64,000 nucleotides of DNA from an uncultured Candidatus Peribacteria bacterium (lineage in GTDB: Bacteria; Patescibacteriota; Gracilibacteria; UBA4473): assembly GCA_964344775.1 (NCBI GenBank), contig CAYFOO010000001.1:13087-77086 (forward strand), in the 5' to 3' direction. Shown piece by piece: positions 10,422 through 58,132 of this stretch; within the stretch, counting starts at the first letter, position 1, and each line of letters opens with the position of its first letter. A model generated the notes under the pieces. That model saw only the letters and a list, made by a program, of their open reading frames with translations. It was not told the DNA's origin and did no database searches. Both the position numbers and the translations under genes were made by a program.

Positions 10422-10492
10422 TTTTATCTTTTCTATTGATAGATTATCCTTTAAGAACGCATCTTTCAATAATGAAATTTTTATTCTTCTTT

Positions 10493-10527
10493 ACTTTTGA
10501 CTTTTAACTTTTAACTTTCGACTTATT
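10493..10527. repeat. heptamer array ACTTTTG ACTTTTA ACTTTTA ACTTTCG ACTTATT
   Basis: Non-coding or 5'-coding copy of the ACTTTTG family, sitting exactly where a hypF start codon is expected. Confidence 0.75.
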
Positions 10528-12759
10528 CCCACGTACAAATTTACCATCACCGGAACAGTTCAGGGCGTCGGATTTCGACCATTTATTCTCCGTGAGGCAA
10601 AAAAAGCAGGGTTGGAAGGATATGTAAAAAATACAGGCATCGGCGTAGAAATCGTGGCCAACGATAAAAATAAAATTGCAAAAATCCTAGAGAATCTACC
10701 CCCTCTGGCCAAGATTGATCAAATTAAGATTCAAGAAATCAAAGATGAAAAATTTAAAGATTTTGTAATTCAAAATTCTTCCCGTACAGACGCCCAATTT
10801 GGGCGTCTCCATAATACAAAAACAAATTTTTCCATCCCCCCCGATATCACCACTTGTGATAAATGCCAAAAAGAATTATTTGATCGGGATGATCGAAGAT
10901 TTCAATATTTTTTCACGAGCTGCACCGACTGCGGTCCCAGATTTTCGATTACAGAGCAATTTCCCTTCGATCGGGAGAATACCACCTTGGAAAAATTCCC
11001 TATGTGCCCAGACTGCGAAAAAGAATACAAAAATCCGGAAGACCGAAGATTCCACGCACAAACTATCGCCTGTGAAAAATGTGGTCCTGTATTGTCCTTG
11101 TACTGTAAAGACACGCCACGGCGTGTCTCCACAGGAAAAAATGCCATAAAAAAAACAATTGATCTTCTCAAATCCGGAGAAATCATCGCCATCAAATCGA
11201 TCGGCGGATTTAGCTTGATCTGCCTGGCCGATGAAAAAACGGTCACAAAATTACGATCCCTCACCCACCGAAAAAACAAGCCTTTTGCCCTGATGGCCAA
11301 AGACATAAATATGATCAAAAATATTGTTCATATTTCTAAGAAAGAACAAGAAATTTTGGAGTCACGAGAGCGGCCAATCGTACTATTGCATCGTAAAGAC
11401 GCCCAAATTGGGCGTCTCAATCACATATCAGAAAACAGCTTCCTCGGATTTTGCCTCCCCTACACTCCCCTGCACCACCTAATTTTTGAGCATCTGGATG
11501 AACCCATCATCTTCACCTCATCCAATCTCCCCGGCATCCCAATTACCACAAAAAAAGAACAACAATTTGTCCCCCATGTCCTGGATTATGACCGGAAGAT
11601 CGCGAACTTTTCGGATGATTCGATCGTAAAAGTAATCGCTGATCATCCCCTCCTCATCCGCCGAAGTCGCGGATTTGTCCCCACAGAAATTCAGGTCCCT
11701 AAAAATTATCAAATATTTGAAGATGATATCCTCGCCGTCGGAGGAGAAATGAAAAACACCTTTTGTCTCAAAAAAGGAAACTCACTACTCCTTTCTCAAC
11801 ACCTAGGAAACACAGCCGGACTCGAGAACTTTGAAAATTTTCGCATCACGCTTGATAAATTTCTGAAATTTACTGGTGCCAAACCAAAGGTAATTCTGTG
11901 CGATAAAAATCCCTCCTTCAATACCCATCAATTTGCTCATGATTTTGCGAAGAAAAATAAGATTCAATGTGTGGAAATTCAACACCACGTGGCACACGTT
12001 TTTTCGACAGCACTCGAACACAATCTGACGAACTTCATCGGAATCGCTGCAGATGGCACCGGCTGGGGAGAGGGTAACAAAGTCTGGGGCGGAGAAGTTT
12101 TTCATAATGATCAGAGAATTGGAAAACTCGAAGATCAAACCCTCATGGGCGGGGACATCGCAAATAAAGAACCAGTCCGGATGCTCATCGGAATTTTATC
12201 CAAATTTTTAGATGAAAAAGAAATCATAAACCTGCTTCCAAATTTTAATGAAAAATTAATTAAAAATTGTATCAAACAAAAGAAAGAAAACTTCAACTGC
12301 ATTGAAAGCTCCAGTTGTGGACGGATCCTTGATTGCATATCTATCCTCCTCGGATTGGCGGATAAAAATGATTACGAAGGGCGATGTGCACAGATGTTAG
12401 AAATAAAAAATGACCTTCCAAAATTTAAAATTAAAAATTTAAAATTAAAAATTAAGGGAAAAGATAATTTAAATATTTTAGAAACTACTCCTCTTTTTCA
12501 ATTTCTCATTGAAAAGCTGGATAAAATCCCAAAAGAAGAGCTCGCACATCTAGCCCAACTCTACCTGGCTGAAGGGCTTCTGAAAATCACCCAAGATCAA
12601 AACCTCCCCATCGTCTGGAGCGGCGGCTGTGCTTACAACTCAATCATAACCAGCTTTTTGATTTCAAAAAATGTACTATTCAACAAAAACATTCCTTCTG
12701 GAGATGGGGGAATTTCTGCCGGACAAATTGCATACTTCCTTTGGAAAAAATTTAACTAA
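10525..12759 (+). CDS. hypF: [NiFe]-hydrogenase maturation carbamoyltransferase HypF
   Basis: Contains an acylphosphatase motif (GTVQGVGFRPF), two CxxC zinc-finger pairs, a YrdC-like block (IAIKSIGGFSL, KNKPFALM) and a Kae1-like C-terminus. The track start (TTG 10612) cuts the acylphosphatase motif. The frame is open from 10501 with no ATG/GTG/TTG, so ATT 10525 is a guess. Confidence 0.85.
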   Translation: MPTYKFTITGTVQGVGFRPFILREAKKAGLEGYVKNTGIGVEIVANDKNKIAKILENLPPLAKIDQIKIQEIKDEKFKDFVIQNSSRTDAQFGRLHNTKTNFSIPPDITTCDKCQKELFDRDDRRFQYFFTSCTDCGPRFSITEQFPFDRENTTLEKFPMCPDCEKEYKNPEDRRFHAQTIACEKCGPVLSLYCKDTPRRVSTGKNAIKKTIDLLKSGEIIAIKSIGGFSLICLADEKTVTKLRSLTHRKNKPFALMAKDINMIKNIVHISKKEQEILESRERPIVLLHRKDAQIGRLNHISENSFLGFCLPYTPLHHLIFEHLDEPIIFTSSNLPGIPITTKKEQQFVPHVLDYDRKIANFSDDSIVKVIADHPLLIRRSRGFVPTEIQVPKNYQIFEDDILAVGGEMKNTFCLKKGNSLLLSQHLGNTAGLENFENFRITLDKFLKFTGAKPKVILCDKNPSFNTHQFAHDFAKKNKIQCVEIQHHVAHVFSTALEHNLTNFIGIAADGTGWGEGNKVWGGEVFHNDQRIGKLEDQTLMGGDIANKEPVRMLIGILSKFLDEKEIINLLPNFNEKLIKNCIKQKKENFNCIESSSCGRILDCISILLGLADKNDYEGRCAQMLEIKNDLPKFKIKNLKLKIKGKDNLNILETTPLFQFLIEKLDKIPKEELAHLAQLYLAEGLLKITQDQNLPIVWSGGCAYNSIITSFLISKNVLFNKNIPSGDGGISAGQIAYFLWKKFN
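10788..10808. repeat. 21-nt palindrome AGACGCCCAATTTGGGCGTCT inside hypF
   Basis: 10+1+10 perfect. Translated as TDAQFGRL. Confidence 0.85.
11109..11128. repeat. 20-nt palindrome AGACACGCCACGGCGTGTCT inside hypF
   Basis: 9-bp arms. Translated as KDTPRRVS. Confidence 0.85.
11397..11417. repeat. 21-nt palindrome AGACGCCCAAATTGGGCGTCT inside hypF
   Basis: Same as 10788..10808 with the central base complemented, i.e. the opposite orientation. Translated as KDAQIGRL. Confidence 0.85.
12424..12458. repeat. heptamer array TTTAAAA TTAAAAA TTTAAAA TTAAAAA TTAAGGG inside hypF
   Basis: Translated as KFKIKNLKLKIKGK. Confidence 0.75.
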
Positions 12760-13183
12760 TTGTCCCACCAGCTTTTTCAACCGCTTTTTTTGCAGATTCG
12801 GAAATTGGCACCCCAGCGATCTCTACTTTTTTTGTAATTTTTCCGTTCCCCAAAATCTTAGCCATTTCTTTTTTACTTATTAGGTTTTTTGTCCGAAGAG
12901 AATCAATAGTCACCTTTTCTTTGTCTTTAAAATTTTCTTCCAAAACAGATAAATTAATGGCTCGGACCGCTACACGATTTGGATTTTTGAATCCTCGTAA
13001 TTTTGGCATTCGATCTAGAACTCCAGATTGTCCTCCTTCAAATCCAAGTCGTACACCACCTCCTGCTCGAGCGTTTTGCCCATTCATACCTCGACCAGAG
13101 AAAGTTCCTCTACCACTCCCATCACCTCGTCCAACTCTTTTTCGAGTTTTCCGTGCATTTGGCTTCAATTCATTTAGCTTCAT
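12752..13183 (-). CDS. rplO: 50S ribosomal protein L15
   Basis: RVGRGDGSGRGTFSGRGMNGQNARAGGG and the rest are typical L15. Last gene of the spc-like block. Confidence 0.95.
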   Translation of the reverse strand: MKLNELKPNARKTRKRVGRGDGSGRGTFSGRGMNGQNARAGGGVRLGFEGGQSGVLDRMPKLRGFKNPNRVAVRAINLSVLEENFKDKEKVTIDSLRTKNLISKKEMAKILGNGKITKKVEIAGVPISESAKKAVEKAGGTIS

Positions 13184-13212
13184 TGTTAATTAGTTGTTAG
13201 TTATTATTTTCA

Positions 13213-13240
13213 GGTTGTAGGTTATAGGTGGTAGGTGGGA
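13213..13240. repeat. heptamer array GGTTGTA GGTTATA GGTGGTA GGTGGGA
   Basis: Left arm of the S5|L15 spacer structure. Confidence 0.75.
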
Positions 13241-13275
13241 GGGATTTGTTTAAATTATGCCCTACCCTACTCCGC

Positions 13276-13332: not shown

Positions 13333-14265
13333 TTATTTTTTACTTTTAGCTTTCGACTTTTTGCCTGTTTCCTCTTTCTTCTTCGTTGTTTTCGCTTTTC
13401 CCTTGTCCTCCGTAGCTTTAGCGGAGGAGGATTCCTTCTTTACTGGTGCTTTCTTTTTTACTGCCTTTTTTTCCTCTTCTGTAGTTTTTTCACTTTTAAC
13501 TTTCGACTTTTGACTTTTGACTTCTTCACTTTCCACTTCTGCCTTTTTCTTGTTACTTGGTGGTGCTTCTGTTCGAAGTAAATTTAATGCTTCAAAAGTA
13601 GCATAAGCGGTATTCAACCTATTTCGTGAACCATGAGATTTAGAAAGCACATTTTTGATCCCTGCTAGGTCCAAAATAGTTCGTACTGATCCTCCTGCGA
13701 TCACCCCCGTACCTTCTGGTGCTGGAATTAAAATTACTTTGGTTGCTTTGAAGTAAGCTTCAATATCGTGAGGAATAGAATCTTCAAAAATTGGAACCGT
13801 CACTAATTTTTTCTTTGCCGCTGCTACAGCTTTTTGGATCCCTACCATCACTTCTGTTGCTTTTCCTACCCCAAGTCCGACTCGTCCTTTTTTGTCTCCA
13901 ATCGCTACCGTCACTTGAAATCGCATTCGTCGTCCTCCCTTCACCACACGAGTCACCCGAGAAATCCGGAGGATACTTTCTTCAAATTCCTTTTTTTCTC
14001 GTTCTCGTCCACCACCTCGACGACCACCACGACCACCTCTCTGACGTTTATCCTTGTGATCCCGGAGGTCTCTTTGATCTGGCTTCCCTTTTTCATCAGC
14101 CTTTTTTTCCTCTTTCTTCTCAGAAGCTTCCCTGTCGGTAGAAGCTGAAGCAGCGGAAGATTCTTCTGCCGATTTTTCAGTGGAAGCATCTTCAGGCTGT
14201 GTGGCCACCTCTGCTGGTGCAGCAGTTCCTTCTTTTTCCGGTGTTGTAGTAGCGTCTTCAGACAT
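13333..14265 (-). CDS. rpsE: 30S ribosomal protein S5 with long N- and C-terminal low-complexity extensions
   Basis: The core (ISRVTRVVKGGRRMRF...GTGVIAGGSVRTILDLAGIKNVLSKSHGS) is flanked by about 95 aa of acidic/RGG sequence and about 85 aa of Lys-rich tail. The tail is encoded by repeat modules. Confidence 0.9.
   Translation of the reverse strand: MSEDATTTPEKEGTAAPAEVATQPEDASTEKSAEESSAASASTDREASEKKEEKKADEKGKPDQRDLRDHKDKRQRGGRGGRRGGGREREKKEFEESILRISRVTRVVKGGRRMRFQVTVAIGDKKGRVGLGVGKATEVMVGIQKAVAAAKKKLVTVPIFEDSIPHDIEAYFKATKVILIPAPEGTGVIAGGSVRTILDLAGIKNVLSKSHGSRNRLNTAYATFEALNLLRTEAPPSNKKKAEVESEEVKSQKSKVKSEKTTEEEKKAVKKKAPVKKESSSAKATEDKGKAKTTKKKEETGKKSKAKSKK
13342..13362. repeat. heptamer array ACTTTTA GCTTTCG ACTTTTT (last codons of rpsE)
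   Basis: Encodes ...KSKAKSKK. Confidence 0.7.
13401..13431. repeat. CCTTGTCCTCCGTAGCTTTAGCGGAGGAGGA module inside the rpsE tail
   Basis: Family CCTGTCCGCCGTAGCCTTGGCGAAGGAGGA (42178..42210, 33288..33320). Translated as SSSAKATEDKG. Confidence 0.7.
13492..13526. repeat. heptamer array ACTTTTA ACTTTCG ACTTTTG ACTTTTG ACTTCTT inside the rpsE tail
   Basis: Encodes VKSQKSKVKS, the identical peptide to the carA insertion. Confidence 0.8.
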
Positions 14266-14341
14266 TATTATTTAGTTATAAATTTTTTCCTTAATTTTAA
14301 ACTTTGCATTTTAAATTTTTAATTTTGAAATTTTGATGAAA

Positions 14342-15303: not shown

Positions 15304-15394
15304 TTAGTTATTAGTGGTTAGTTATTAGTGGTTAGTTTTTAGTTCTTAGTTTTTAATTCCGAAATCCGCATTTCGCATTCCGAAATTGAATTAG
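15304..15394. repeat. 13-unit in-phase heptamer array filling the whole rplF-rpsH spacer
   Basis: TTAGTTA TTAGTGG TTAGTTA TTAGTGG TTAGTTT TTAGTTC TTAGTTT TTAATTC CGAAATC CGCATTT CGCATTC CGAAATT GAATTAG. Confidence 0.85.
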
Positions 15395-21557: not shown

Positions 21558-22632
21558 ATTCATCAAAAAGATATGCCGCATCCTCCGGCCCCGCACACGC
21601 CTCCGGATGAAACTGTACGGAAAAGATTGGTTTTCCTTTGTGTCGGATACCTTCAACAGACCCATCATTGAGATTTTTGAACCAAACCTCAAAATCAGGC
21701 GGCAAAGAATCCCCATCCACCTCGTATCCGTGATTTTGCGAAGTAATTAAACACCTTTTTGTACCACTTTTGACTTTTGACTTTTGACTTTTGACTTGAA
21801 TTACCGGCTGATTCACCCCCCGATGTCCGTATTTCATCTTTTTTGTTTTTCCTCCCGCAGCAAGTGAAAGAATCTGATTTCCCAAGCAAATCCCAAAAAT
21901 CGGTAATTCCCTTGTCATCGACTGCCGAGCAATTTCGATGGTCTCCACTACTTTTTCTGGATCTCCTGGCCCATTGGAAATGAAAATGCCATCAATCTTC
22001 TCTCCCAGATCAAAAGGTGGATGATTGTACGGCATTCGTAAAATTCGGATTCCTCGCTGAAGAAAATTTCGTAGAATTCCATTCTTCGCTCCACAATCCA
22101 TAAAAGCAATCGTTTTTCCGGTCGGATTTTCCGGTTCCAGAATTTCCATTCCTTCCGGAGAAACAGAGGGGACAAATCTTCCCCCCAGTTCATCTTCAAA
22201 TTTCACTGGTTTTTTGTCGCCCAATTTACCCAAGATTGTTCCCTTTTCTCGTAGAATTTGTGTTAACTCCCGTGTATCAATCCCAGAAATCGCTGGAATA
22301 CCTTGCTCTTTGAGCCAATCCATAAAACTTTTCACTGCTTCGCAATGAGAGAACTTCAACGATTCTTCGGTTAAAATGACTCCTCGAACCCAGATTTTTT
22401 TACTTTCAAATGTTTGATCTACGTTGTCCTGAAAAGACTTTACTTCCGGCACACCATAGTTCCCAATCAGCGGAAAAGTGAACGTCACGATTTGTCCAAA
22501 ATAGCTCGGATCCGTGAGAGTTTCGAGATATCCGGTCATTCCGGTAGTGAAAACAACCTCCCCTTCGGCTTCGCTCTCTGCTCCGAAAGAGGTACCTTCA
22601 AATGTTTTTCCGTTCGCGAGAAAGAGTTTCAT
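21541..22632 (-). CDS. carA: carbamoyl-phosphate synthase small (glutaminase) subunit, with in-frame repeat insertion
   Basis: Typical CarA blocks (GICLGNQIL, GHRGVNQPV, ITSQNHGYEV, FSVQFHPEA). VKSQKSKVKS is encoded by four exact ACTTTTG units at 21766..21793. No carB is adjacent. Confidence 0.9.
   Translation of the reverse strand: MKLFLANGKTFEGTSFGAESEAEGEVVFTTGMTGYLETLTDPSYFGQIVTFTFPLIGNYGVPEVKSFQDNVDQTFESKKIWVRGVILTEESLKFSHCEAVKSFMDWLKEQGIPAISGIDTRELTQILREKGTILGKLGDKKPVKFEDELGGRFVPSVSPEGMEILEPENPTGKTIAFMDCGAKNGILRNFLQRGIRILRMPYNHPPFDLGEKIDGIFISNGPGDPEKVVETIEIARQSMTRELPIFGICLGNQILSLAAGGKTKKMKYGHRGVNQPVIQVKSQKSKVKSGTKRCLITSQNHGYEVDGDSLPPDFEVWFKNLNDGSVEGIRHKGKPIFSVQFHPEACAGPEDAAYLFDEFIREL
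21766..21798. repeat. (ACTTTTG)x4 exact + ACTTG inside carA
   Basis: Exact tandem units counted directly. Confidence 0.9.
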
Positions 22633-41917: not shown

Positions 41918-41973
41918 AATTCGTAATTCGTAATTTGTAATTGAAGATTGGTAATTGAATCACTGCTCACTCT
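41918..41973. repeat. heptamer array AATTCGT AATTCGT AATTTGT AATTGAA GATTGGT AATTGAA TCACTGC TCACTCT
   Basis: Runs across the stop and last codons of the NDP-sugar transferase. Confidence 0.8.
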
Positions 41974-43000
41974 CATGCAACCTCGTCCCTCGCCGCACGA
42001 GCTTCCGGTTGAGATCAAGTCCCTCGAAGTCACAACCCTCATCAATCACCGATTGCGAAATAATGCAGTTTTTTAATTTAACATTCGGATAAATGATCGA
42101 ATCCTGAATCCGACAATTTTGGATTTCTGAATCTTCCCCAATAAAAACCTTTCCAGAAAATTTATTCCCTTGATTTTGCCTGTCCGCCGTAGCCTTGGCG
42201 AAGGAGGAAGTTTTAAGTTTTGAGCTTTGAGCTAGTTTTAAATCCTCTTTTTGAAGTTTTCTATGTGCCTCCAGATACGTCTCAAAACTCCCCACATCAA
42301 ACCACTCTCCTCCTACTTTCACGGCTGATAATTTTTTTCCATGAGCTAAAAACTCGGTAAAAACTCCACCGAGAGAATCAGCCTCTTTCTGGGCAAAACT
42401 GTGCAAAATCGGCAATAAATCTTTCCCAATCCCAAAGAATCCAGTCGAAACTAAGTTCGATTTCGGATTCTCCGGCTTCTCCTCAAACCTCTTAATTAAA
42501 AAATCTTTTCTATTTTGATTTTTTAATTCCGCATTTCGCATTCCGAAATCCGAAATCTCCACCACTCCAAACTTCCGTGCTTCATATAAATCCTCCACCT
42601 CTCGCACCGCCACCTTTCCCTCTTTTTCTGAACAAAAAAGTTGATCAATATGTAATTCTGGAAGGAGGTTGTCTCCGGCAATCACCACCAGATTCTCATC
42701 AATAGAAAAATATTTGATCGCCATCGAAAGAGCTCCCACCGCCCCCAGTTTCTCCTGGTCTGAGTGGGCATCCTCACAAAAAATTTCTACATTCTTTCGT
42801 CCTAATTTTTCTAGCTCTTTTTGGAAATCGGCTTCAAATCTTTTGTTTGTAAGCAAAATCACCTCCAGGTCAGCTGGAACCTTCTCGAGAATATGTGTCA
42901 AAATCGTCTGTCCATCGAGAAGCAGGAGCGGCTTCGCTCGGTGCTCAGTCAGCGGCCACAACCGTGTCGCAAATCCGCCAGCTAAAATTAGGACTTTCAT
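41960..43000 (-). CDS. sugar-1-phosphate nucleotidyltransferase with C-terminal left-handed beta-helix, carrying repeat-derived insertions
   Basis: MKVLILAGGFATRLWPLT and an LbH-like C-terminus (IGEDSEIQNCRIQDSIIYPNVKLKNCII). The internal DFGMRNAELKN and KLKTSSFAKATADRQ segments are encoded by repeat modules. Confidence 0.8.
   Translation of the reverse strand: MKVLILAGGFATRLWPLTEHRAKPLLLLDGQTILTHILEKVPADLEVILLTNKRFEADFQKELEKLGRKNVEIFCEDAHSDQEKLGAVGALSMAIKYFSIDENLVVIAGDNLLPELHIDQLFCSEKEGKVAVREVEDLYEARKFGVVEISDFGMRNAELKNQNRKDFLIKRFEEKPENPKSNLVSTGFFGIGKDLLPILHSFAQKEADSLGGVFTEFLAHGKKLSAVKVGGEWFDVGSFETYLEAHRKLQKEDLKLAQSSKLKTSSFAKATADRQNQGNKFSGKVFIGEDSEIQNCRIQDSIIYPNVKLKNCIISQSVIDEGCDFEGLDLNRKLVRRGTRLHESEQ
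42178..42235. repeat. GC module GCCTGTCCGCCGTAGCCTTGGCGAAGGAGGAAG plus heptamers AAGTTTT GAGCTTT GAGCTAG, inside a CDS
   Basis: Translated as KLAQSSKLKTSSFAKATADRQ in the interdomain linker. Confidence 0.75.
42526..42560. repeat. heptamer array ATTCCGC ATTTCGC ATTCCGA AATCCGA AATCTCC inside a CDS
   Basis: Translated as EISDFGMRNAE, in the same frame as the RdgB C-terminus. Confidence 0.8.
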
Positions 43001-51786: not shown

Positions 51787-54114
51787 ATGTTTTGGGCTGA
51801 CCGCATCGCTGACGAAATTCTTGCCGCACATCCTGACCAGGAAGAATTTATCGTGCGTGACGAAAAAACACTCTCTGGACGAGTACATGTAGGATCCCTG
51901 CGAGGAGTTGTAATCCACGGCCTGATTGCTCAAGTACTGAATGAAAAAGGGAAAAAAGCTAAATTTATTTTTGAGTTTAACGACTTTGATCCCATGGACG
52001 GACTCCCAATCTACCTGGATGAAACAAAGTTCGCCCCAGAAATGGGAAAACCACTCAAAAATGTCCCCTCCCCTGATGCCAACCACAAAAACTACGCCGA
52101 ATACTTTGGAGATGAATTTTTGGGAGTAATTCAAGAGCTTGGCTTTGATCCAGAAATCCCTCGAGCATCTGGACTCTATGAAAGCGGACAAGTGAATAAT
52201 TGGATCCAACTAGCCCTGGAGAAAAAAGATGATATCCGAGAAATCTACCGAGAAGTATCTGGCTCTCAAAAAAGTCCACACTGGTCCCCCGTACAAGTAA
52301 TCTGTGAAAACTGTGGGCGTGTGGGAACTACGGATGTGAAAGATTTTGATGGGAAAGAGGTAACCTACACCTGCGAAAAACATAAAGTAAAATGGGCCGA
52401 AGGTTGTGGCCATGAAGGAAAAGTTTCTCCCTTCGATGGAAATGCCAAACTTCTCTGGAAAGTAGAATGGCCGGCTAAATGGGCAGCTTACAAAGTAGAT
52501 GTAGAAGGGTCTGGAAAAGACCACAATGCTTCCGGAGGAAGTCATGAGATCGGAGAACACATCTGTGAAAAAGTTTTTAACACTACTGTGCCCTTCAACA
52601 TCCCCTATGAATTCTTTTTAATTGGTGGAAAAAAAATGTCCTCTTCAAAAGGATCCGGAGCTACGGCTCGAGAGGTAGCGGATACCCTCCCGCCAGAATT
52701 GTTGAGATTTTTGATGATCCGGACAGAACCGAGAAAACCGATTGAATTTAATCCAGAAGGAGAAACCATTCCCCGACTTTTTGATGAGCACGATCGAGCC
52801 GCAAATGAATATTTTTTGGGTGAAAAAAGTACTTTTCCGGATCTGGGAAGATGTTTCTTTCTTTCTCAAATAGATCTGAATAAAAAGCCGGTAGAAAAAT
52901 ATCTGCCGAGATTTTCAAAGCTCGTTTTTGCGATCCAAATCCCTCGTCTGGATATCCAGAAAGAAGTTGCCGAATGGAAAGGATCACCACTTACAAAAGA
53001 TGACCTCGAAGAATTAGAACTAAGAATAAAATATGCCAAACGTTGGATCGAAGACTTCGCTCCAGAAAACTACCTCTTCAAAATCTCTGACGAAATACCT
53101 GAGAGAGCCGACGAATTAACCGATGCACAAAAAGACGTACTCAAAAAAATGGCCGAACAATTGGCTCGAGTCGAATGGGAAGGCGAAAATATCCATGGTG
53201 CACTACACGGAATAAAAGAAGAATCTGGACTCTCACCACGGGAGTTTTTTGCTACCATTTATTTACCAATTTTGGGACGAGATTCTGGTCCACAAGCTGG
53301 ATGGTTGATCTCTGCTCTAGAAAAAGAGTGGGTACTCAAAAGATTTGAAGAAGTGAGTAAAAAGAGTAAAAAATCAATACTTTCGTCCCTTGAAGAGTTA
53401 GCAGGAAAAACAAAAGATGAAAAAATATTCCATATTGCCCCCGCATTTTTTGAGAAATTCCCAGAAGCTAAATTGGCAATTATTACGGTCAAAAAAACAG
53501 ACAATTCTACAAAAAATCCCGATATAGAAAAATTCCTCCGTGAAACTGAAAAAGCCTTTTCTTTAGAGGGAGAAATTCCTACCCATCCACGAATAGAATG
53601 CTGGAGAGAGGCTTATAGATCTTTTGGGATGAAACCAAGTGAGTTTCGCTCTTCTATCGAAGGTCTAGTAAGAAGAGTAAAAGCAAACAAACCACTCCCA
53701 CTGATTAATCCTCTAGTTGATATTTATAATGCTATTTCAATTAAGCATCTCCTCCCAGCAGGAGGGGAAGATTTGGATAAAATTGAAGGAGCTCTACAAC
53801 TTAATTTTGCTGAGGGGACGGAAGAATTTTTTAGTATTGGAAGTGAAAAAAATGAGCCTCCTAAAAAAGGAGAACTGGTCTATCAAGATGATAAAAATAT
53901 AGTTTGCCGTTCGTGGAATTGGAGGGAAGCAGATAGGACAAAATTAACACCAAAAACAACAGAAGCAGTCTTAATTTTGGAAGCTTTGCCACCAACAAAA
54001 ACATCCGAGCTAGAATCTGCGGCAAAAGAGCTAGAAGAAAAAATAAATAAATTTTTAGGTGGAGAAATCAAAATAGAAATACTTTCTAATCAAAAAAATC
54101 ATTGCTACCTTTAA
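51787..54114 (+). CDS. lysK: class I lysyl-tRNA synthetase fused to a C-terminal B3/4-like domain
   Basis: The HIGH-like GRVHVGSLRG and the KMSKS-like KMSSSKG lie in the first ~520 aa. The last ~230 aa contain SSIEGLVRRV...LPLINPLVDIYNAISIKHLLPAGGEDLDKIEG, which resembles the PheRS-beta B3/4 family. Confidence 0.8.
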   Translation: MFWADRIADEILAAHPDQEEFIVRDEKTLSGRVHVGSLRGVVIHGLIAQVLNEKGKKAKFIFEFNDFDPMDGLPIYLDETKFAPEMGKPLKNVPSPDANHKNYAEYFGDEFLGVIQELGFDPEIPRASGLYESGQVNNWIQLALEKKDDIREIYREVSGSQKSPHWSPVQVICENCGRVGTTDVKDFDGKEVTYTCEKHKVKWAEGCGHEGKVSPFDGNAKLLWKVEWPAKWAAYKVDVEGSGKDHNASGGSHEIGEHICEKVFNTTVPFNIPYEFFLIGGKKMSSSKGSGATAREVADTLPPELLRFLMIRTEPRKPIEFNPEGETIPRLFDEHDRAANEYFLGEKSTFPDLGRCFFLSQIDLNKKPVEKYLPRFSKLVFAIQIPRLDIQKEVAEWKGSPLTKDDLEELELRIKYAKRWIEDFAPENYLFKISDEIPERADELTDAQKDVLKKMAEQLARVEWEGENIHGALHGIKEESGLSPREFFATIYLPILGRDSGPQAGWLISALEKEWVLKRFEEVSKKSKKSILSSLEELAGKTKDEKIFHIAPAFFEKFPEAKLAIITVKKTDNSTKNPDIEKFLRETEKAFSLEGEIPTHPRIECWREAYRSFGMKPSEFRSSIEGLVRRVKANKPLPLINPLVDIYNAISIKHLLPAGGEDLDKIEGALQLNFAEGTEEFFSIGSEKNEPPKKGELVYQDDKNIVCRSWNWREADRTKLTPKTTEAVLILEALPPTKTSELESAAKELEEKINKFLGGEIKIEILSNQKNHCYL

Positions 54115-54712: not shown

Positions 54713-55948
54713 TTATTCTTTGCACGAAACCAGGTTTGCTTGCCGAGCACAGACGATGTCTTTGTAGAGAAGCGTTTCTTCGAGTTGGGCATTGATCTCT
54801 AGGATAGTTTGAAAGGTGTATTCCAATTTTTTCGCAAAGCCGTCGGTTCTGATCCCAGAGATGTGTTTCGCTCGATCGATGAGGTAGTTTCGATCGTTTC
54901 TCCATTTTTGGTGCCGTGTTTCAAAGTGTCGTTCATGAGGCCGAGCTTGAGTCCATTCTTCGATAGTTCTGGTTTCTCCTGCGGTTTCCTTGACCTTGAT
55001 CCCGGCCATCAGCCATTTGATGGGATCGGACAAAAATTTTGTAGCTTTAAATTTTTCCCAAAATCGTTCTCGTTGGAGATAAAATTTTGGCAAAGGGAGG
55101 AGATCTTCGATCAAATAGTAAAAAGGATAAAAATCATCCGTGTTAATGGTTTTGTGCGATCGGGCGAAGGCTTTTTTGAATTCTTGCGATATTTTGAGCG
55201 GGAGAGGAAGAGGTTCGTCTGCGTGACCGTATTGGACGGAATAGTTTTCTGATCGAACATCTGCCGTGTCCTGTTTCTCCAGTAATTCCCGCGAATTTTT
55301 GAGGAGCGGAGGAATAATTTTATCTTTTCTTTGAATTTCTTCATCTTTGCAGATTCTTTGATTTTGTAGATTTAGCTCCAGGTAGAGTTTTTCGGCTAGT
55401 TCTTTGGCACTGGCCGAATTAAACACCACTGATTTTGAGGTCCGGAGTGGCTGGATAGCTGCTGGGAGAATGTTTATCAACATATCTTCATGAAAAGCAA
55501 AAACAGCCTCGGTTTTTTGCTCGAATTCATCAGAAAAGCAGGCTTCGTGGTCTTGCATGCTTGTTTTTCTTCGAAATTCATCAATCCGTGGAAGGACGTC
55601 CAGATATTTATTTAATGCTGCAGGAAATTCATCTGGAAACGCGGCAAAATATTTATCAATCGTTCGGAGTTTTTGAGAGAGGAGGTAGAATCTTTTGAAT
55701 CGAGGAGAGTATTCGATATCACTGATATCTTTTGTAAGTTCTGTGAAAATTGGAACGGGGACACTGGGACATCTGGCTATTTCTTTGGGCAGTTCCACTT
55801 CCTTCAGGTGTTGCAGCTGGAATTCTGCCTGTGGAGTCAGATCTTCCAGAGTTTTTGGTGGTATGCATTTGGGATTACCCACATTTTCCTCTTCTGCGAA
55901 GGTCAATGCTGGAGTAAAAAGAATGATAAAAATAATCAGTTTTTTCAT
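54713..55948 (-). CDS. secreted hypothetical protein (third gene of a three-gene operon)
   Basis: Signal peptide MKKLIIFIILFTPALTFA. 6 Cys. ATGA overlap with the upstream gene. Confidence 0.6.
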   Translation of the reverse strand: MKKLIIFIILFTPALTFAEEENVGNPKCIPPKTLEDLTPQAEFQLQHLKEVELPKEIARCPSVPVPIFTELTKDISDIEYSPRFKRFYLLSQKLRTIDKYFAAFPDEFPAALNKYLDVLPRIDEFRRKTSMQDHEACFSDEFEQKTEAVFAFHEDMLINILPAAIQPLRTSKSVVFNSASAKELAEKLYLELNLQNQRICKDEEIQRKDKIIPPLLKNSRELLEKQDTADVRSENYSVQYGHADEPLPLPLKISQEFKKAFARSHKTINTDDFYPFYYLIEDLLPLPKFYLQRERFWEKFKATKFLSDPIKWLMAGIKVKETAGETRTIEEWTQARPHERHFETRHQKWRNDRNYLIDRAKHISGIRTDGFAKKLEYTFQTILEINAQLEETLLYKDIVCARQANLVSCKE

Positions 55949-57237
55949 AATTTTTTTGGCTTGTGGGCTAGATCTTTAAAAATTTTCTTCAGCTTCACGA
56001 CCTGATCGTACCAGGCAAAGAAATCATCGTTCCAATAATCAATCACTCGGAGAATGCGGACAAAATACTGCTGTTCCGGTTCCATGGTGGCAGCTTTTTT
56101 GATCGCATCCAGGTGTTGTTCCCAATCTTCTGTTCGCATAATTGTACATTCTTCCATTAGTTCGTCACTGTATTTTTTTGTGAGGTTGTATTTTCCTTTT
56201 CTCGCTTCTTCCAGTCGATTGAGGCAGGAAGTTTCCAGGCGAATTCGATCTTCTAGTCCAGCGAACCTTTTTCCGATTAATTCCCGGTTATTTATTTCTA
56301 CTTCTAGATCAGCTTTTTGGATGGGAGCTTTCAGAATTTTCTGACTGTAGAGATCTCCAATATCCGGGAGGTAGTACCAGCCGGACTGCTGAAAAAGGCG
56401 GGTGTTGTTACATTCTGCCACTTGCGAGAGATCAGCGAGTTTATATTCAAGAACATTTTTCATATTGGCAAAATTTCCTGCAATGAATCCATCCTCTTCA
56501 GAATAATCATTTGGATTGGTGGTGAGCTGACTTTCTGTATTACAGTTGCCTTTGTAGCAGGGGAATTTTTCTTTGAATCCATCCATCCAGGTGGGCCAAT
56601 CTCCGGTTTCTATATCTTCCTCTTCATCCCTTTCTTCATCTTTATTTTCGGTATCCTCTTCTCCCTCATCCTCACCTATTCGAGAACGATATTTCTTCGA
56701 TTTTTCATACACAAATTCTGGTTTCGGTTGATCTTTTTTGTAGGCTTTTTCTCCGAAAATGAGTTCATCAATTTCATCTAGATCGTCGATCAGATCGTAG
56801 GGATATTGATCATCAGCTTTTCCCATTTTTCTGTCCGAGTGGATACTCATGTGATTCAATCGTTCTTTGAGATAATCTTCAAACCACAGCAGCTCCCGTT
56901 CAAATTTCATCACATCTTTTGCCCGAGCAGCCCATTCTTGTTGAGATTGTATGCTCCAATGAATTTGTTCAATTTCTTCTAATTTTTTTTCACCTTCATG
57001 ACTTTGTTCCCATCGTTCTAGTGTTTGGAGTTTTGGGCAGGAGATATTCTTAAAAGTATCTTCTTCTAGGGTGTCAGGGTTATCCCAATTGGCTTTTCGA
57101 TTTTGCACTCGCTTACAGACACTTTCTTCGTGTTCCTGAGTCATGGAATTTGTTTTTTCATAGATTCTTTTGTAGAGATCTTGAAAATCCTTGAGAGCGT
57201 TTGTTTCTACGGGAAAAATAAAAATTCCAATTATCAT
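55945..57237 (-). CDS. secreted hypothetical protein (second gene of operon)
   Basis: Start moved to MIIGIFIFPVETNA. The ORF-track N-terminus is translated from the (GAATTTT)4 array. It contains an acidic stretch and 7 Cys. Confidence 0.55.
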   Translation of the reverse strand: MIIGIFIFPVETNALKDFQDLYKRIYEKTNSMTQEHEESVCKRVQNRKANWDNPDTLEEDTFKNISCPKLQTLERWEQSHEGEKKLEEIEQIHWSIQSQQEWAARAKDVMKFERELLWFEDYLKERLNHMSIHSDRKMGKADDQYPYDLIDDLDEIDELIFGEKAYKKDQPKPEFVYEKSKKYRSRIGEDEGEEDTENKDEERDEEEDIETGDWPTWMDGFKEKFPCYKGNCNTESQLTTNPNDYSEEDGFIAGNFANMKNVLEYKLADLSQVAECNNTRLFQQSGWYYLPDIGDLYSQKILKAPIQKADLEVEINNRELIGKRFAGLEDRIRLETSCLNRLEEARKGKYNLTKKYSDELMEECTIMRTEDWEQHLDAIKKAATMEPEQQYFVRILRVIDYWNDDFFAWYDQVVKLKKIFKDLAHKPKKL

Positions 57238-57265
57238 AATTTCTCGGAAAACTTTCCAAATTTTT

Positions 57266-57293
57266 GAATTTTGAATTTTGAATTTTGAATTTT
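57266..57293. repeat. (GAATTTT)x4 exact
   Basis: Lies between the first and second genes of the secreted-protein operon. Confidence 0.9.
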
Positions 57294-58132
57294 TAATCAT
57301 TGGTGGTGATGAGTTCTTCATAATCCTCTCCGGCATGTTGGTCGCAGAGTTCTGAGGCGGCGTAGTTAAATTTGTCCGGGAATTTGTAGATGGCTTTTCG
57401 GAGGATGGTGCTCATGGCATGTGTTTTTTTGAGAGCCTCCCAGATGGTGGTGAGCCACATGTGAAATCGGTAATTTTGTTCCCATTTTTGATAACGATAG
57501 AGAGTTTCGAAGAGGGCTTTTTTTGATTTTTCTAGTTCAGCTCTGTGCTTTCCTTTATTGCCTCGGTCTGCTTCAAAAAAGCCCACGTTAGTTTTTTCTT
57601 CGAATTGTTTTTCTGCATGGGATTCATCCAGGATCTTCCATTCGATGTATTCTTGGTAGGCACAAAACTCGTTCATCACGGTTTCTGTGACATGACAGGC
57701 AGAATAAAATTTATCAATCGTGGGATTATAGTCTTCTGTGGGGCACATGCTCTCGTATCCGTTGTTGATCTGAGATTTTATCGTCTCCTGCATGTTTTCA
57801 GAGGGTGTGCATTCATCGTTTCTTTCGATGTCTTCGAAGTTGGCCGTGCTGGGAATTTCTTTCCAGATACGGGTAAAGTCCGCATTCATATGATTGATCG
57901 ATTGGGCCATGGCGTCATTGAAGAGGCAGTTGATCTTTTTTTGATATTTTTCCTGTGCTTGAACAAGTGGCTCATCTAGTGAATAACTCAAAGAAGAGTG
58001 GCACAGCTGCTTCTGCGTCATTTCTGCGAAGTTGTCTCGGAGCCCACTGTCTAAAGAAAAAGCTGCAGGAACTTGAAAGATGAATGTTCCGAGCAAAAAT
58101 ATGGAAATGACCCTTTTTTTGTTTTTGTTCAC
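57293..58132 (-). CDS. secreted hypothetical protein (first gene of operon)
   Basis: Signal peptide ...FIFQVPAAFS. 7 Cys. No recognisable domain. Confidence 0.6.
   Translation of the reverse strand: MNKNKKRVISIFLLGTFIFQVPAAFSLDSGLRDNFAEMTQKQLCHSSLSYSLDEPLVQAQEKYQKKINCLFNDAMAQSINHMNADFTRIWKEIPSTANFEDIERNDECTPSENMQETIKSQINNGYESMCPTEDYNPTIDKFYSACHVTETVMNEFCAYQEYIEWKILDESHAEKQFEEKTNVGFFEADRGNKGKHRAELEKSKKALFETLYRYQKWEQNYRFHMWLTTIWEALKKTHAMSTILRKAIYKFPDKFNYAASELCDQHAGEDYEELITTND

Follow-up and report, generated by a model that had tools for sequence, protein, structure and literature searches.

What does a perfect heptanucleotide repeat do inside the gene of a conserved enzyme, where the gain or loss of a single unit shifts the reading frame? 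This question is raised by the carA gene, encoding the small (glutaminase) subunit of carbamoyl-phosphate synthase (CPS), in a 64,000-nucleotide stretch of DNA from an uncultured Candidatus Peribacteria bacterium (contig CAYFOO010000001.1; the whole of this stretch is termed the window). The gene carries an array of the unit GTCAAAA, and the original prediction, made from the sequence, had placed two readings side by side, a slippage-driven frameshift switch and a tolerated surface-loop insertion. The evidence collected here makes it probable that the array is a tolerated loop insertion born by slippage, belonging to the class of heptanucleotide simple sequence repeats (SSRs), where slippage as the origin and the neutrality of the insert are what we infer. 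In this case, carA is best annotated as an intact gene whose Lys/Ser-rich loop is the translation of a microsatellite, neither a domain nor a switch.

The carA array and the loop that it encodes

Tandem Repeats Finder (TRF) and a search for exact runs both recover the carA array, which TRF reports as an exact period-7 run of ACTTTTG x4.6 covering 32 nt at 100% match with a score of 64 (Table 1). The exact ACTTTTG repeat had been predicted at 21766-21798 and was found as such, except that it ends one base earlier, at 21797. On the coding strand it reads GTC AAA AGT CAA AAG TCA AAA GTC AAA AGT and is translated in frame as VKSQKSKVKS, codons 280-289 of carA (21766-21795), flanked by GHRGVNQPVIQ and GTKRCLITSQNHGYEV and hence, as predicted, lying between the conserved blocks GHRGVNQPV and ITSQNHGYEV. 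The units stand head to tail without a spacer and occur beyond chance, both of them traits of an SSR; dinucleotide shuffles predict 0.01 occurrences of the 14-mer ACTTTTGACTTTTG, of which the window has four. The wider sequence is rich in such repeats, with ten exact period-7 runs of at least 17 nt compared with 0.15 in shuffles (approximately 70-fold), no comparable excess at periods 5-6 and 8-15 and a weak one at period 4 (8 vs 4.15). After removal of overlaps, TRF arrays of period 7, 14 or 21 number 35 in the 64-kb window, whereas carA loci give 16 in 129 kb from relatives and 11 in 395 kb from Clostridia. The heptamer arrays of the window are built from GTCAAAA, TTCAAAA, ACGAATT and other units and are mostly intergenic; several are translated, among them those in carA, in the tail of ribosomal protein S5, in a nucleotidyl-transferase and in a signal-peptide-like N-terminus.

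Mis-assembly can happen at repeats, and an assembly or sequencing artefact at this site has therefore to be weighed, but it is hardly credible here. The contig of the European Nucleotide Archive (ENA; run ERR2281802) matches the window at 100% identity over 21 kb, array included, and the Logan assembly of a second run, ERR2281803, does so over 12 kb, again with the array. Since the assemblies of the two runs are identical at carA, the array is not the assembly error that had been named as a possible undoing of the original prediction. At 32 nt it is also shorter than a sequencing read and than the k-mer of 127 given in the contig name, the carA frame is preserved across it, and arrays of the GTCAAAA type recur in at least 120 unrelated contigs.

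The protein carries the Pfam domains CPSase_sm_chain (PF00988, 2e-47) and GATase (PF00117, 2.9e-53), and its catalytic residues Cys249, His342 and Glu344 fall in invariant columns of the orthologue alignment. Its predicted structure matches solved CPS small subunits in Foldseek with template-modelling (TM) scores of 0.90 (5dot) and 0.87 (1jdb/1cs0). Given this fold match and the invariant Cys249, His342 and Glu344, CarA looks intact, with an enlarged, floppy hairpin tip. The closest relatives of both CarA and HypF, a second protein encoded in the window, come from metagenome-assembled genomes (MAGs) labelled Candidatus Peribacteria, Peregrinibacteria or Gracilibacteria. Among the open reading frames (ORFs) of the window that were scanned, carB was not identified. 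An alternative genetic code with recoding of UGA, as in some Gracilibacteria, is not needed, the ORFs being intact under translation table 11.

The nearest CarA orthologue (L001/P0002; 80% identity, 354 aa) has PVQDLKSQKCLITS where the window has PVIQVKSQKSKVKSGTKRCLITS, and the two DNA sequences align with a single gap of 27 nt (9 aa) at the array, a site at which the orthologue carries CTCAAATCACAAAA, an imperfect two-unit proto-repeat. The same nine-residue gap appears in the alignment with human CPS1 (PDB 5dot, E = 8e-81). The spacing from NQP to [ST]xQNHG is 20 residues in the window CarA and 11 in 96 of 119 relatives, in keeping with the earlier estimate that the loop of E. coli-type CarA is only about half as long. 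Inserts of 1-12 aa are found in this loop in 23 of the 119, and in a neighbour-joining tree of these relatives built without the loop each insert-bearing CarA adjoins insert-free neighbours; judging from the sequences, the array loop is a recurrent site of insertion and deletion.

An AlphaFold2 (AF2) model computed from 28 aligned sequences has a mean predicted local distance difference test score (pLDDT) of 90 and a predicted TM score (pTM) of 0.90. In this model the insert forms the turn between two hairpin strands, residues 275-279 and 294-297, and residues 285-291 are the sole segment of CarA with pLDDT below 50, so that the alignment and the structural mapping which had been proposed as checks agree on an insertion at the tip of a hairpin in an otherwise confident model. 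The nine added Lys/Ser-rich residues are predicted to be disordered. The tolerated surface-loop insertion of the original prediction is well matched by a protein that is nine residues longer than an 80%-identical orthologue at a low-pLDDT tip, keeps its triad and has relatives with inserts in the same loop.

A different heptamer array, approximately five copies of (A/G)AATTAA, occupies the same loop site in a CarA of 70% identity (L002). That array (L002:3883-3917; CAZQFO010000002.1, a Peribacteria MAG) is imperfect, lies 27 nt above the norm and contains an in-frame TAA, beyond which 72 codons are fully conserved; a pseudogene of recent origin, read-through and an error of assembly could each account for this stop. 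Arrays of period 14, AAACTNTGAACTAT in 2-2.7 copies, abut the 5' side of the carA start in four further Peribacteria MAGs (L011, L012, L014 and L015, ~2960-2995), where they could be a conserved regulatory repeat.

The history that we propose for the carA insert begins with ancestral Leu/Val-Lys-Ser-Gln-Lys codons, from which replication slippage would have grown a young, perfectly homogeneous (GTCAAAA)x4.6 microsatellite in the hairpin tip of the glutaminase domain. The array is translated, adding nine Lys/Ser-rich residues that would be tolerated at the tip, and is one of many period-7 arrays in this genome of the candidate phyla radiation (CPR; Peregrinibacteria/Peribacteria lineage). Any change in copy number other than by three units would destroy the protein and be removed by selection.

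Frame arithmetic and the proposed frameshift switch

Because 7 and 3 have no common factor, (GTCAAAA)n encodes one and the same cyclic heptapeptide, VKSQKSK, in each frame and without a stop. The opposite strand, (ACTTTTG)n, is interrupted by TGA whichever of the three frames is read, and for this reason arrays can persist inside genes in the GTCAAAA-sense orientation only. Two consequences follow for the window. The peptide that CarA shares with S5 is automatic, reflecting neither protein homology nor coincidence, as every frame of the array reads VKSQKSK. The array at hypF, a gene of the forward strand, cannot be coding, as the forward strand of that array has stops in all frames.

The claim that a 7-nt unit stays in frame only by threes holds up when the products are computed: three units more or fewer leave the CarA frame unchanged, and one or two units more or fewer cut the product to 292-314 aa, with the loss of His342 and Glu344. 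This arithmetic would serve a contingency locus in which gain or loss of one or two units phase-varies carA off and on, since the unit is no multiple of three and the truncations fall before two catalytic residues. There is also a precedent in Haemophilus, where phase variation of hmw1A is driven by a heptanucleotide tract (PMC8262952). A switch of this kind is nevertheless very unlikely at carA. No length or frameshift variant of the window CarA is present in a collection of 15 billion proteins, in which its 90% cluster has a single member, no truncated CarA sibling is found among the best 120 matches, and searches of metagenome contigs with exact flanks and a variable gap returned no conspecific carA allele of another copy number. 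A change of unit number does shift the frame, as in contingency loci, but coexisting on and off alleles are absent, in what is a weak test, from the two-run assemblies and the protein collection, and carA, a metabolic housekeeping gene, falls outside the classes in which switching is advantageous (surface, restriction-modification and uptake genes). A scan around the array gave no promoter-like or terminator-like site inside it. The lack of variants, the short tract of 4.6 units, the housekeeping host and the absence of such a site together lead us to prefer the tolerated insertion over the switch, whose arithmetic stands but whose operation finds no counterpart among the sequences searched. 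Moreover, GTCAAAA arrays also lie in the indispensable genes rpoB, gyrB, ligA and alaS, where an off-state could not be useful, and identical arrays in these and other aminoacyl-tRNA synthetase genes argue against switching, which would there be lethal.

Arrays in other genes and genomes

At least 120 metagenome contigs, with G+C contents from 30% to 65%, contain the exact 28-mer (GTCAAAA)4. Among the matches listed, 61 contigs have the array in the sense direction of an ORF of 200 aa or more, in-gene arrays measure 29-35 nt in 57 of 63 cases, non-coding ones reach 90 nt, and the arrays cluster at 4.3-4.9 units. The narrow range within genes is what the three-unit frame rule predicts. By conserved motifs alone, the hosts include GyrB, RpoB, PolA, LigA, RecG, MurB, an IscS-like protein and QueA, together with the Ala-, Leu-, Val-, Glu- and Phe-tRNA synthetases (alaS, leuS, valS and pheT among the genes). 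The idea that GTCAAAA is a uniquely favoured or mobile unit gained no support, as viral contigs gave 9 matches to (GTCAAAA)4 against 22 to the arbitrary control (GTACAAA)4 and 15 to (TGCAAAA)4.

Nine of the contigs (L087, L093, L099, L100, L107, L109, L128, L137 and L146) also share a conserved element of approximately 120 nt bounded by the inverted repeat CTAGTAC...GTACTAG (e.g. L100:5707-5831), which encloses a (GTCAAAA) array that is polymorphic by a whole unit, with 4 or 5 copies. No Rfam family was found for it in the ten contigs scanned, RNAalifold supports its terminal stem only, and that weakly, and the element may be a repeat resembling a miniature inverted-repeat transposable element (MITE) or a structured RNA.

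The behaviour of such an array over time can be followed in alanyl-tRNA synthetase (AlaRS), whose array-bearing hosts are Parcubacteria-type CPR bacteria, Nealsonbacteria or Gribaldobacteria where named. The loop after LWNLVFMEY has 9-10 residues in 79 of 116 orthologues and 17-19 in ten others, and when six orthologues are compared at the DNA level, the codon position that their arrays have in common, here termed the slot, holds five heptamers in five lineages, four of them as perfect arrays of the same length (Table 1). Units differ between L083 and L203, although the flanks are 89% identical, and between L149 and L204, with flanks 83% identical; the array is identical in L083 and L149 (flanks 72% identical) and, in LigA, in L084 and L101 (32 nt, flanks 71% identical), two pairs that are biased by a search pattern which selected exact GTCAAAA arrays. 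An AlaRS protein search made without this selection returned one unusual unit, KSEIRNPKSE, both in P0242 (87% identity to the query) and in P0299 (63%). As far as these sequences tell, the identity of the unit in the AlaRS slot does not follow the gene phylogeny.

Could the insert, or the DNA beneath it, be under selection, either as a Lys-rich interaction loop or as a DNA or RNA element of exact sequence or 4.6-unit length? In favour of this, the AlaRS and LigA sites have kept perfect arrays of one length between flanks only 71-72% identical, the lengths of coding and non-coding arrays differ as described, and array ends of the form AAGT...AAGT are preferred. We nevertheless regard a functional insertion as improbable. 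The nearest carA orthologue and the 96 relatives with the short loop have no insert at all, the unit varies by lineage at a single slot, an allele shorter by three units coexists with the longer one in one population, and the array of L002 at the same carA site has an in-frame stop. The narrow in-gene lengths are those expected if only steps of three units are viable, and the comparison is biased, as the search pattern itself selected exact arrays.

The population in question is one AlaRS 90% cluster from the Gribaldobacteria of Crystal Geyser (L253-L257), in which 5.4-kb loci that are 99.5-99.9% identical carry three alleles of the slot (L256:2658-2700). At this slot an essential gene carries an in-frame microsatellite that is hypervariable. 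The clean 21-nt deletion in near-identical Gribaldobacteria loci demonstrates that frame-preserving slippage of (GTCAAAA) arrays occurs in nature. Loci of the (CGCAAAG) type differ from those with (GTCAAAA)4.7 by about 5 substitutions outside the slot. Point mutation at the background rate does not explain the replacement of the unit, which suggests either short-patch recombination or templated copying from one array to another. In CPR bacteria, perfect heptamer arrays of approximately 4.6 units may sit in fixed loop-coding slots of alaS, ligA, rpoB, gyrB, polA, recG, carA and other genes, and the content of these slots, meaning the unit and the copy number in three-unit steps, may turn over far faster than the surrounding gene. 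It is possible, but rather doubtful, that the slots in these housekeeping genes owe their turnover to a process of its own, either targeted hypermutation or templated replacement, beyond occasional slippage.

Two further arrays of the GTCAAAA family lie in the window, bringing those in the same orientation within 11.3 kb to three. In the gene for S5 (rpsE), the decapeptide VKSQKSKVKS, which had been noticed originally, is encoded at 13492-13521 by DNA that is identical to the carA copy at 28 of 30 nt, with two differences that are both synonymous; the S5 array itself is imperfect. At 310 aa, S5 is nearly twice its usual size. A second, degenerate copy of the array at 13342-13359 encodes the last residues of S5, so that part of the S5 tail appears to be array-built.

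The third copy, expected in the 5' region of hypF, is found at 10493-10524, ahead of every possible start codon (ATG, GTG or TTG) of the hypF frame, with the units ACTTTTG, ACTTTTA, ACTTTTA, ACTTTCG and ACTT. The ATT at 10525 aligns with the ATG of HypF orthologues (MTWHKF...; P0122 and others), and hypF has either an AUU start or a lost start. The array sits where a ribosome-binding site would be. An interruption of the hypF coding region by the array was considered, as its excision would bring the ATG at 10472 into frame, and was rejected because the orthologues start at the position of 10525; the array is therefore placed in the 5' leader, outside the ancestral ORF. Between the hypF-upstream array (10507-10524) and that of rpsE (13492-13509) there is an exact 18-mer match, ACTTTTAACTTTCGACTT, in which two variant units follow each other identically in both arrays, an observation made post hoc. 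From the sequence, this 18-mer, common to arrays 3 kb apart, hints at copying or conversion between arrays.

These sister arrays bear on a templated origin, in which the carA array would have been copied into its loop from another GTCAAAA array, such as the one in rpsE at a distance of 8 kb, through template switching or through short-patch gene conversion at microhomology, with slots swapping content within a genome or between strains. The three like-oriented arrays and the variant units shared by two of them fit such an origin, as do the replacement of (GTCAAAA)4.7 by a (CGCAAAG)-type array in the AlaRS slot of 99.9%-identical strains, with about 5 substitutions in the rest of the 5.4 kb, and the departure of AlaRS unit identity from the gene phylogeny. 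However, the carA orthologue already has a two-unit proto-repeat, which suffices for slippage in place, the perfect carA copy has none of the variant units seen in rpsE and upstream of hypF, the shared 18-mer was noticed after the fact, and no donor, recombination tract or enzyme has been identified. A templated origin of the carA array is therefore held to be unlikely, if slightly less so than selection for a function.

Several points weigh against the tolerated, slippage-born insertion that we favour. The net insertion in carA is 27 nt, which is no multiple of 7, and at least one extra small insertion or deletion, or the absorption of neighbouring codons, must therefore be assumed. The placement at a hairpin tip is a prediction from a model of the CarA subunit, and the neutrality of the insert is something we infer. 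Identical arrays of 32-34 nt are kept at the same site in orthologues with flanks 71-72% identical, near-identical strains show the wholesale replacement of one array by another unit, and slippage with point mutation does not easily explain either the persistence or the replacement. The 18-mer common to the hypF-upstream and rpsE arrays likewise hints at copying between arrays as opposed to independent local growth.

Table 1. Positions of the features in the window, and arrays found in the AlaRS slot of other genomes
Feature	Position	Strand	Basis and remarks
carA, carbamoyl-phosphate synthase small (glutaminase) subunit, 363 aa	21541..22632	-	Pfam, alignment, 5dot/1jdb match, Foldseek
Exact heptanucleotide array in carA	21766..21797	-	coding strand (GTCAAAA)x4.6; + strand ACTTTTG; TRF, exact-run search
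Enlarged beta-hairpin turn of CarA, codons 280-293 (VKSQKSKVKSGTKR)	21754..21795	-	AF2 (predicted), DNA alignment; 27 nt longer than in nearest orthologue
32-nt GTCAAAA-family array directly 5' of the hypF start position	10493..10524	+	stops in all three + frames
hypF	10525..12759	+	Acylphosphatase domain (Pfam) from 10534
rpsE (S5), 310 aa, long K/E-rich N- and C-terminal extensions	13333..14265	-	ORF, Pfam
Imperfect GTCAAAA-type array in Lys-rich S5 C-terminal extension	13487..13547	-	TRF
Heptamer arrays ATTCCGC / TCCGAAA, giving ISDFGMRNAE	42526..42557	-	TRF; within hairpin of nucleotidyl-transferase catalytic domain
(TTCAAAA)x5 array, codons 2-13 (IKNSKFKIQNSK)	57262..57297	-	signal-peptide-like N-terminus
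AlaRS slot, L083 / L149			(AAAGTCA), 33-34 nt
AlaRS slot, L203			(GAAATCC), 32 nt
AlaRS slot, L204			(AAAATGC), 33 nt
AlaRS slot, L206			(AAATGCC), 33 nt
AlaRS slot, L205			(AATCAAA), 24 nt
AlaRS slot allele, L256 and L257			(GTCAAAA)4.7
AlaRS slot allele, L255			(GTCAAAA) array minus exactly 21 nt, three units (1.7 units)
AlaRS slot allele, L253 and L254			(CGCAAAG)-type array, 9 nt shorter

Elsewhere in the window, the nucleotidyl-transferase gene (41960-43000, minus strand) has a second repeat after the catalytic domain, where an AAGTTTT array at 42208-42233 encodes LKLAQSSKLKTS; with its ISDFGMRNAE arrays, the gene gives a second example of the process proposed for carA. The ORF 55945..57336 starts MIKNSKFKIQNSKIWKVF..., the positively charged head of a signal-peptide-like N-terminus, and its ATG overlaps the stop of the upstream ORF 57293..58132. 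The minus-strand ORFs meeting at 57293-57336 were considered as one gene split by a (TTTTGAA) array, which was rejected, as the array forms codons 2-13 of the downstream ORF. The spc operon is normally tightly packed, and its spacers L15-S5, S5-L18 and L6-S8 (13183-13242, 14293-14336 and 15304-15355) are unusual here in being full of heptamer arrays. The class I lysyl-tRNA synthetase encoded at 51787-54114 ends in a fused B3/4 domain, which is normally found in the beta subunit of the phenylalanyl-tRNA synthetase (PheRS).

Relation to known repeats and insertions

The carA array belongs to a known class of repeats, and it is the slot behaviour in CPR housekeeping genes that may be the new part of these findings. 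What emerges is a class of in-frame 7-nt microsatellites in essential genes, whose dynamics are filtered by the reading frame to three-unit steps and which behave as hypervariable slots in at least one population. If slots of this kind prove to be general, they would be a new source of rapid variation in protein loops and a strain-level marker for organisms that cannot be cultured.

Heptanucleotide SSRs are described as the commonest class of long SSR in many bacteria, mostly intergenic and attributed to polymerase slippage (Mrazek et al. 2007, as quoted in PMC4679880 and PMC4692102). The arrays of the window resemble the prokaryotic repeats so quoted in being short, head-to-tail 7-nt arrays that are over-represented in particular genomes. 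They differ in that the surveyed SSRs, in the terms of the same quotations, are rare in coding regions, where units of multiples of 3 are favoured, whereas the carA array lies in frame within a conserved enzyme domain. A search of the accessible literature for heptamer or SSR arrays in Peregrinibacteria, CPR or Patescibacteria found no description.

The TAACTGA repeats of Beggiatoaceae, cyanobacteria and Bacteroidetes often lie just 5' of start codons, are translatable in reverse only and are rarely found in ORFs (MacGregor 2015, PMC4679880). They share with the present arrays a position 5' of a start codon, as at hypF, and a low copy number of two to six heptamers, as well as stops in one orientation and, for copies inside ORFs, a peptide repeat of seven residues. 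Units, taxa and base composition set them and the cyanobacterial STRR-type repeats apart from the A-rich NNCAAAA type described here, and the role in translational regulation proposed for TAACTGA (PMC4679880) is inapplicable to an internal coding array. The GGGAATC and GGGGAYT repeats of Xanthomonas and Nostoc have a preference for about four units that has been explained by the formation of G-quadruplexes (G4; Rehm et al. 2015, PMC4692102). Heptamer arrays spread genome-wide with a preference for about four units are common to both systems; however, the A-rich GTCAAAA arrays cannot form G4 and yet cluster at 4.3-4.9 units, and inside genes their clustering near four units is accounted for by the three-unit frame rule.

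The contingency loci of Haemophilus and Neisseria likewise have a unit that is not a multiple of three, and a change in copy number shifts their frame or expression. In contrast, the two-run assemblies show no copy-number variation at carA, its tract is short, its host is a housekeeping gene and similar arrays occupy essential genes.

Proteins of CPR bacteria carry lineage-specific loop insertions and low-complexity extensions. Lys-rich additions to ribosomal and housekeeping proteins, the tail of S5 among them, resemble these, and the arrays offer a visible DNA mechanism for some of the lineage-specific insertions and Lys-rich tails to which CPR proteins owe their unusual appearance. This is also where the present case departs from CPR insertions in general, as the mechanism remains visible in the DNA, where a perfect 7-nt microsatellite encodes the inserted peptide.

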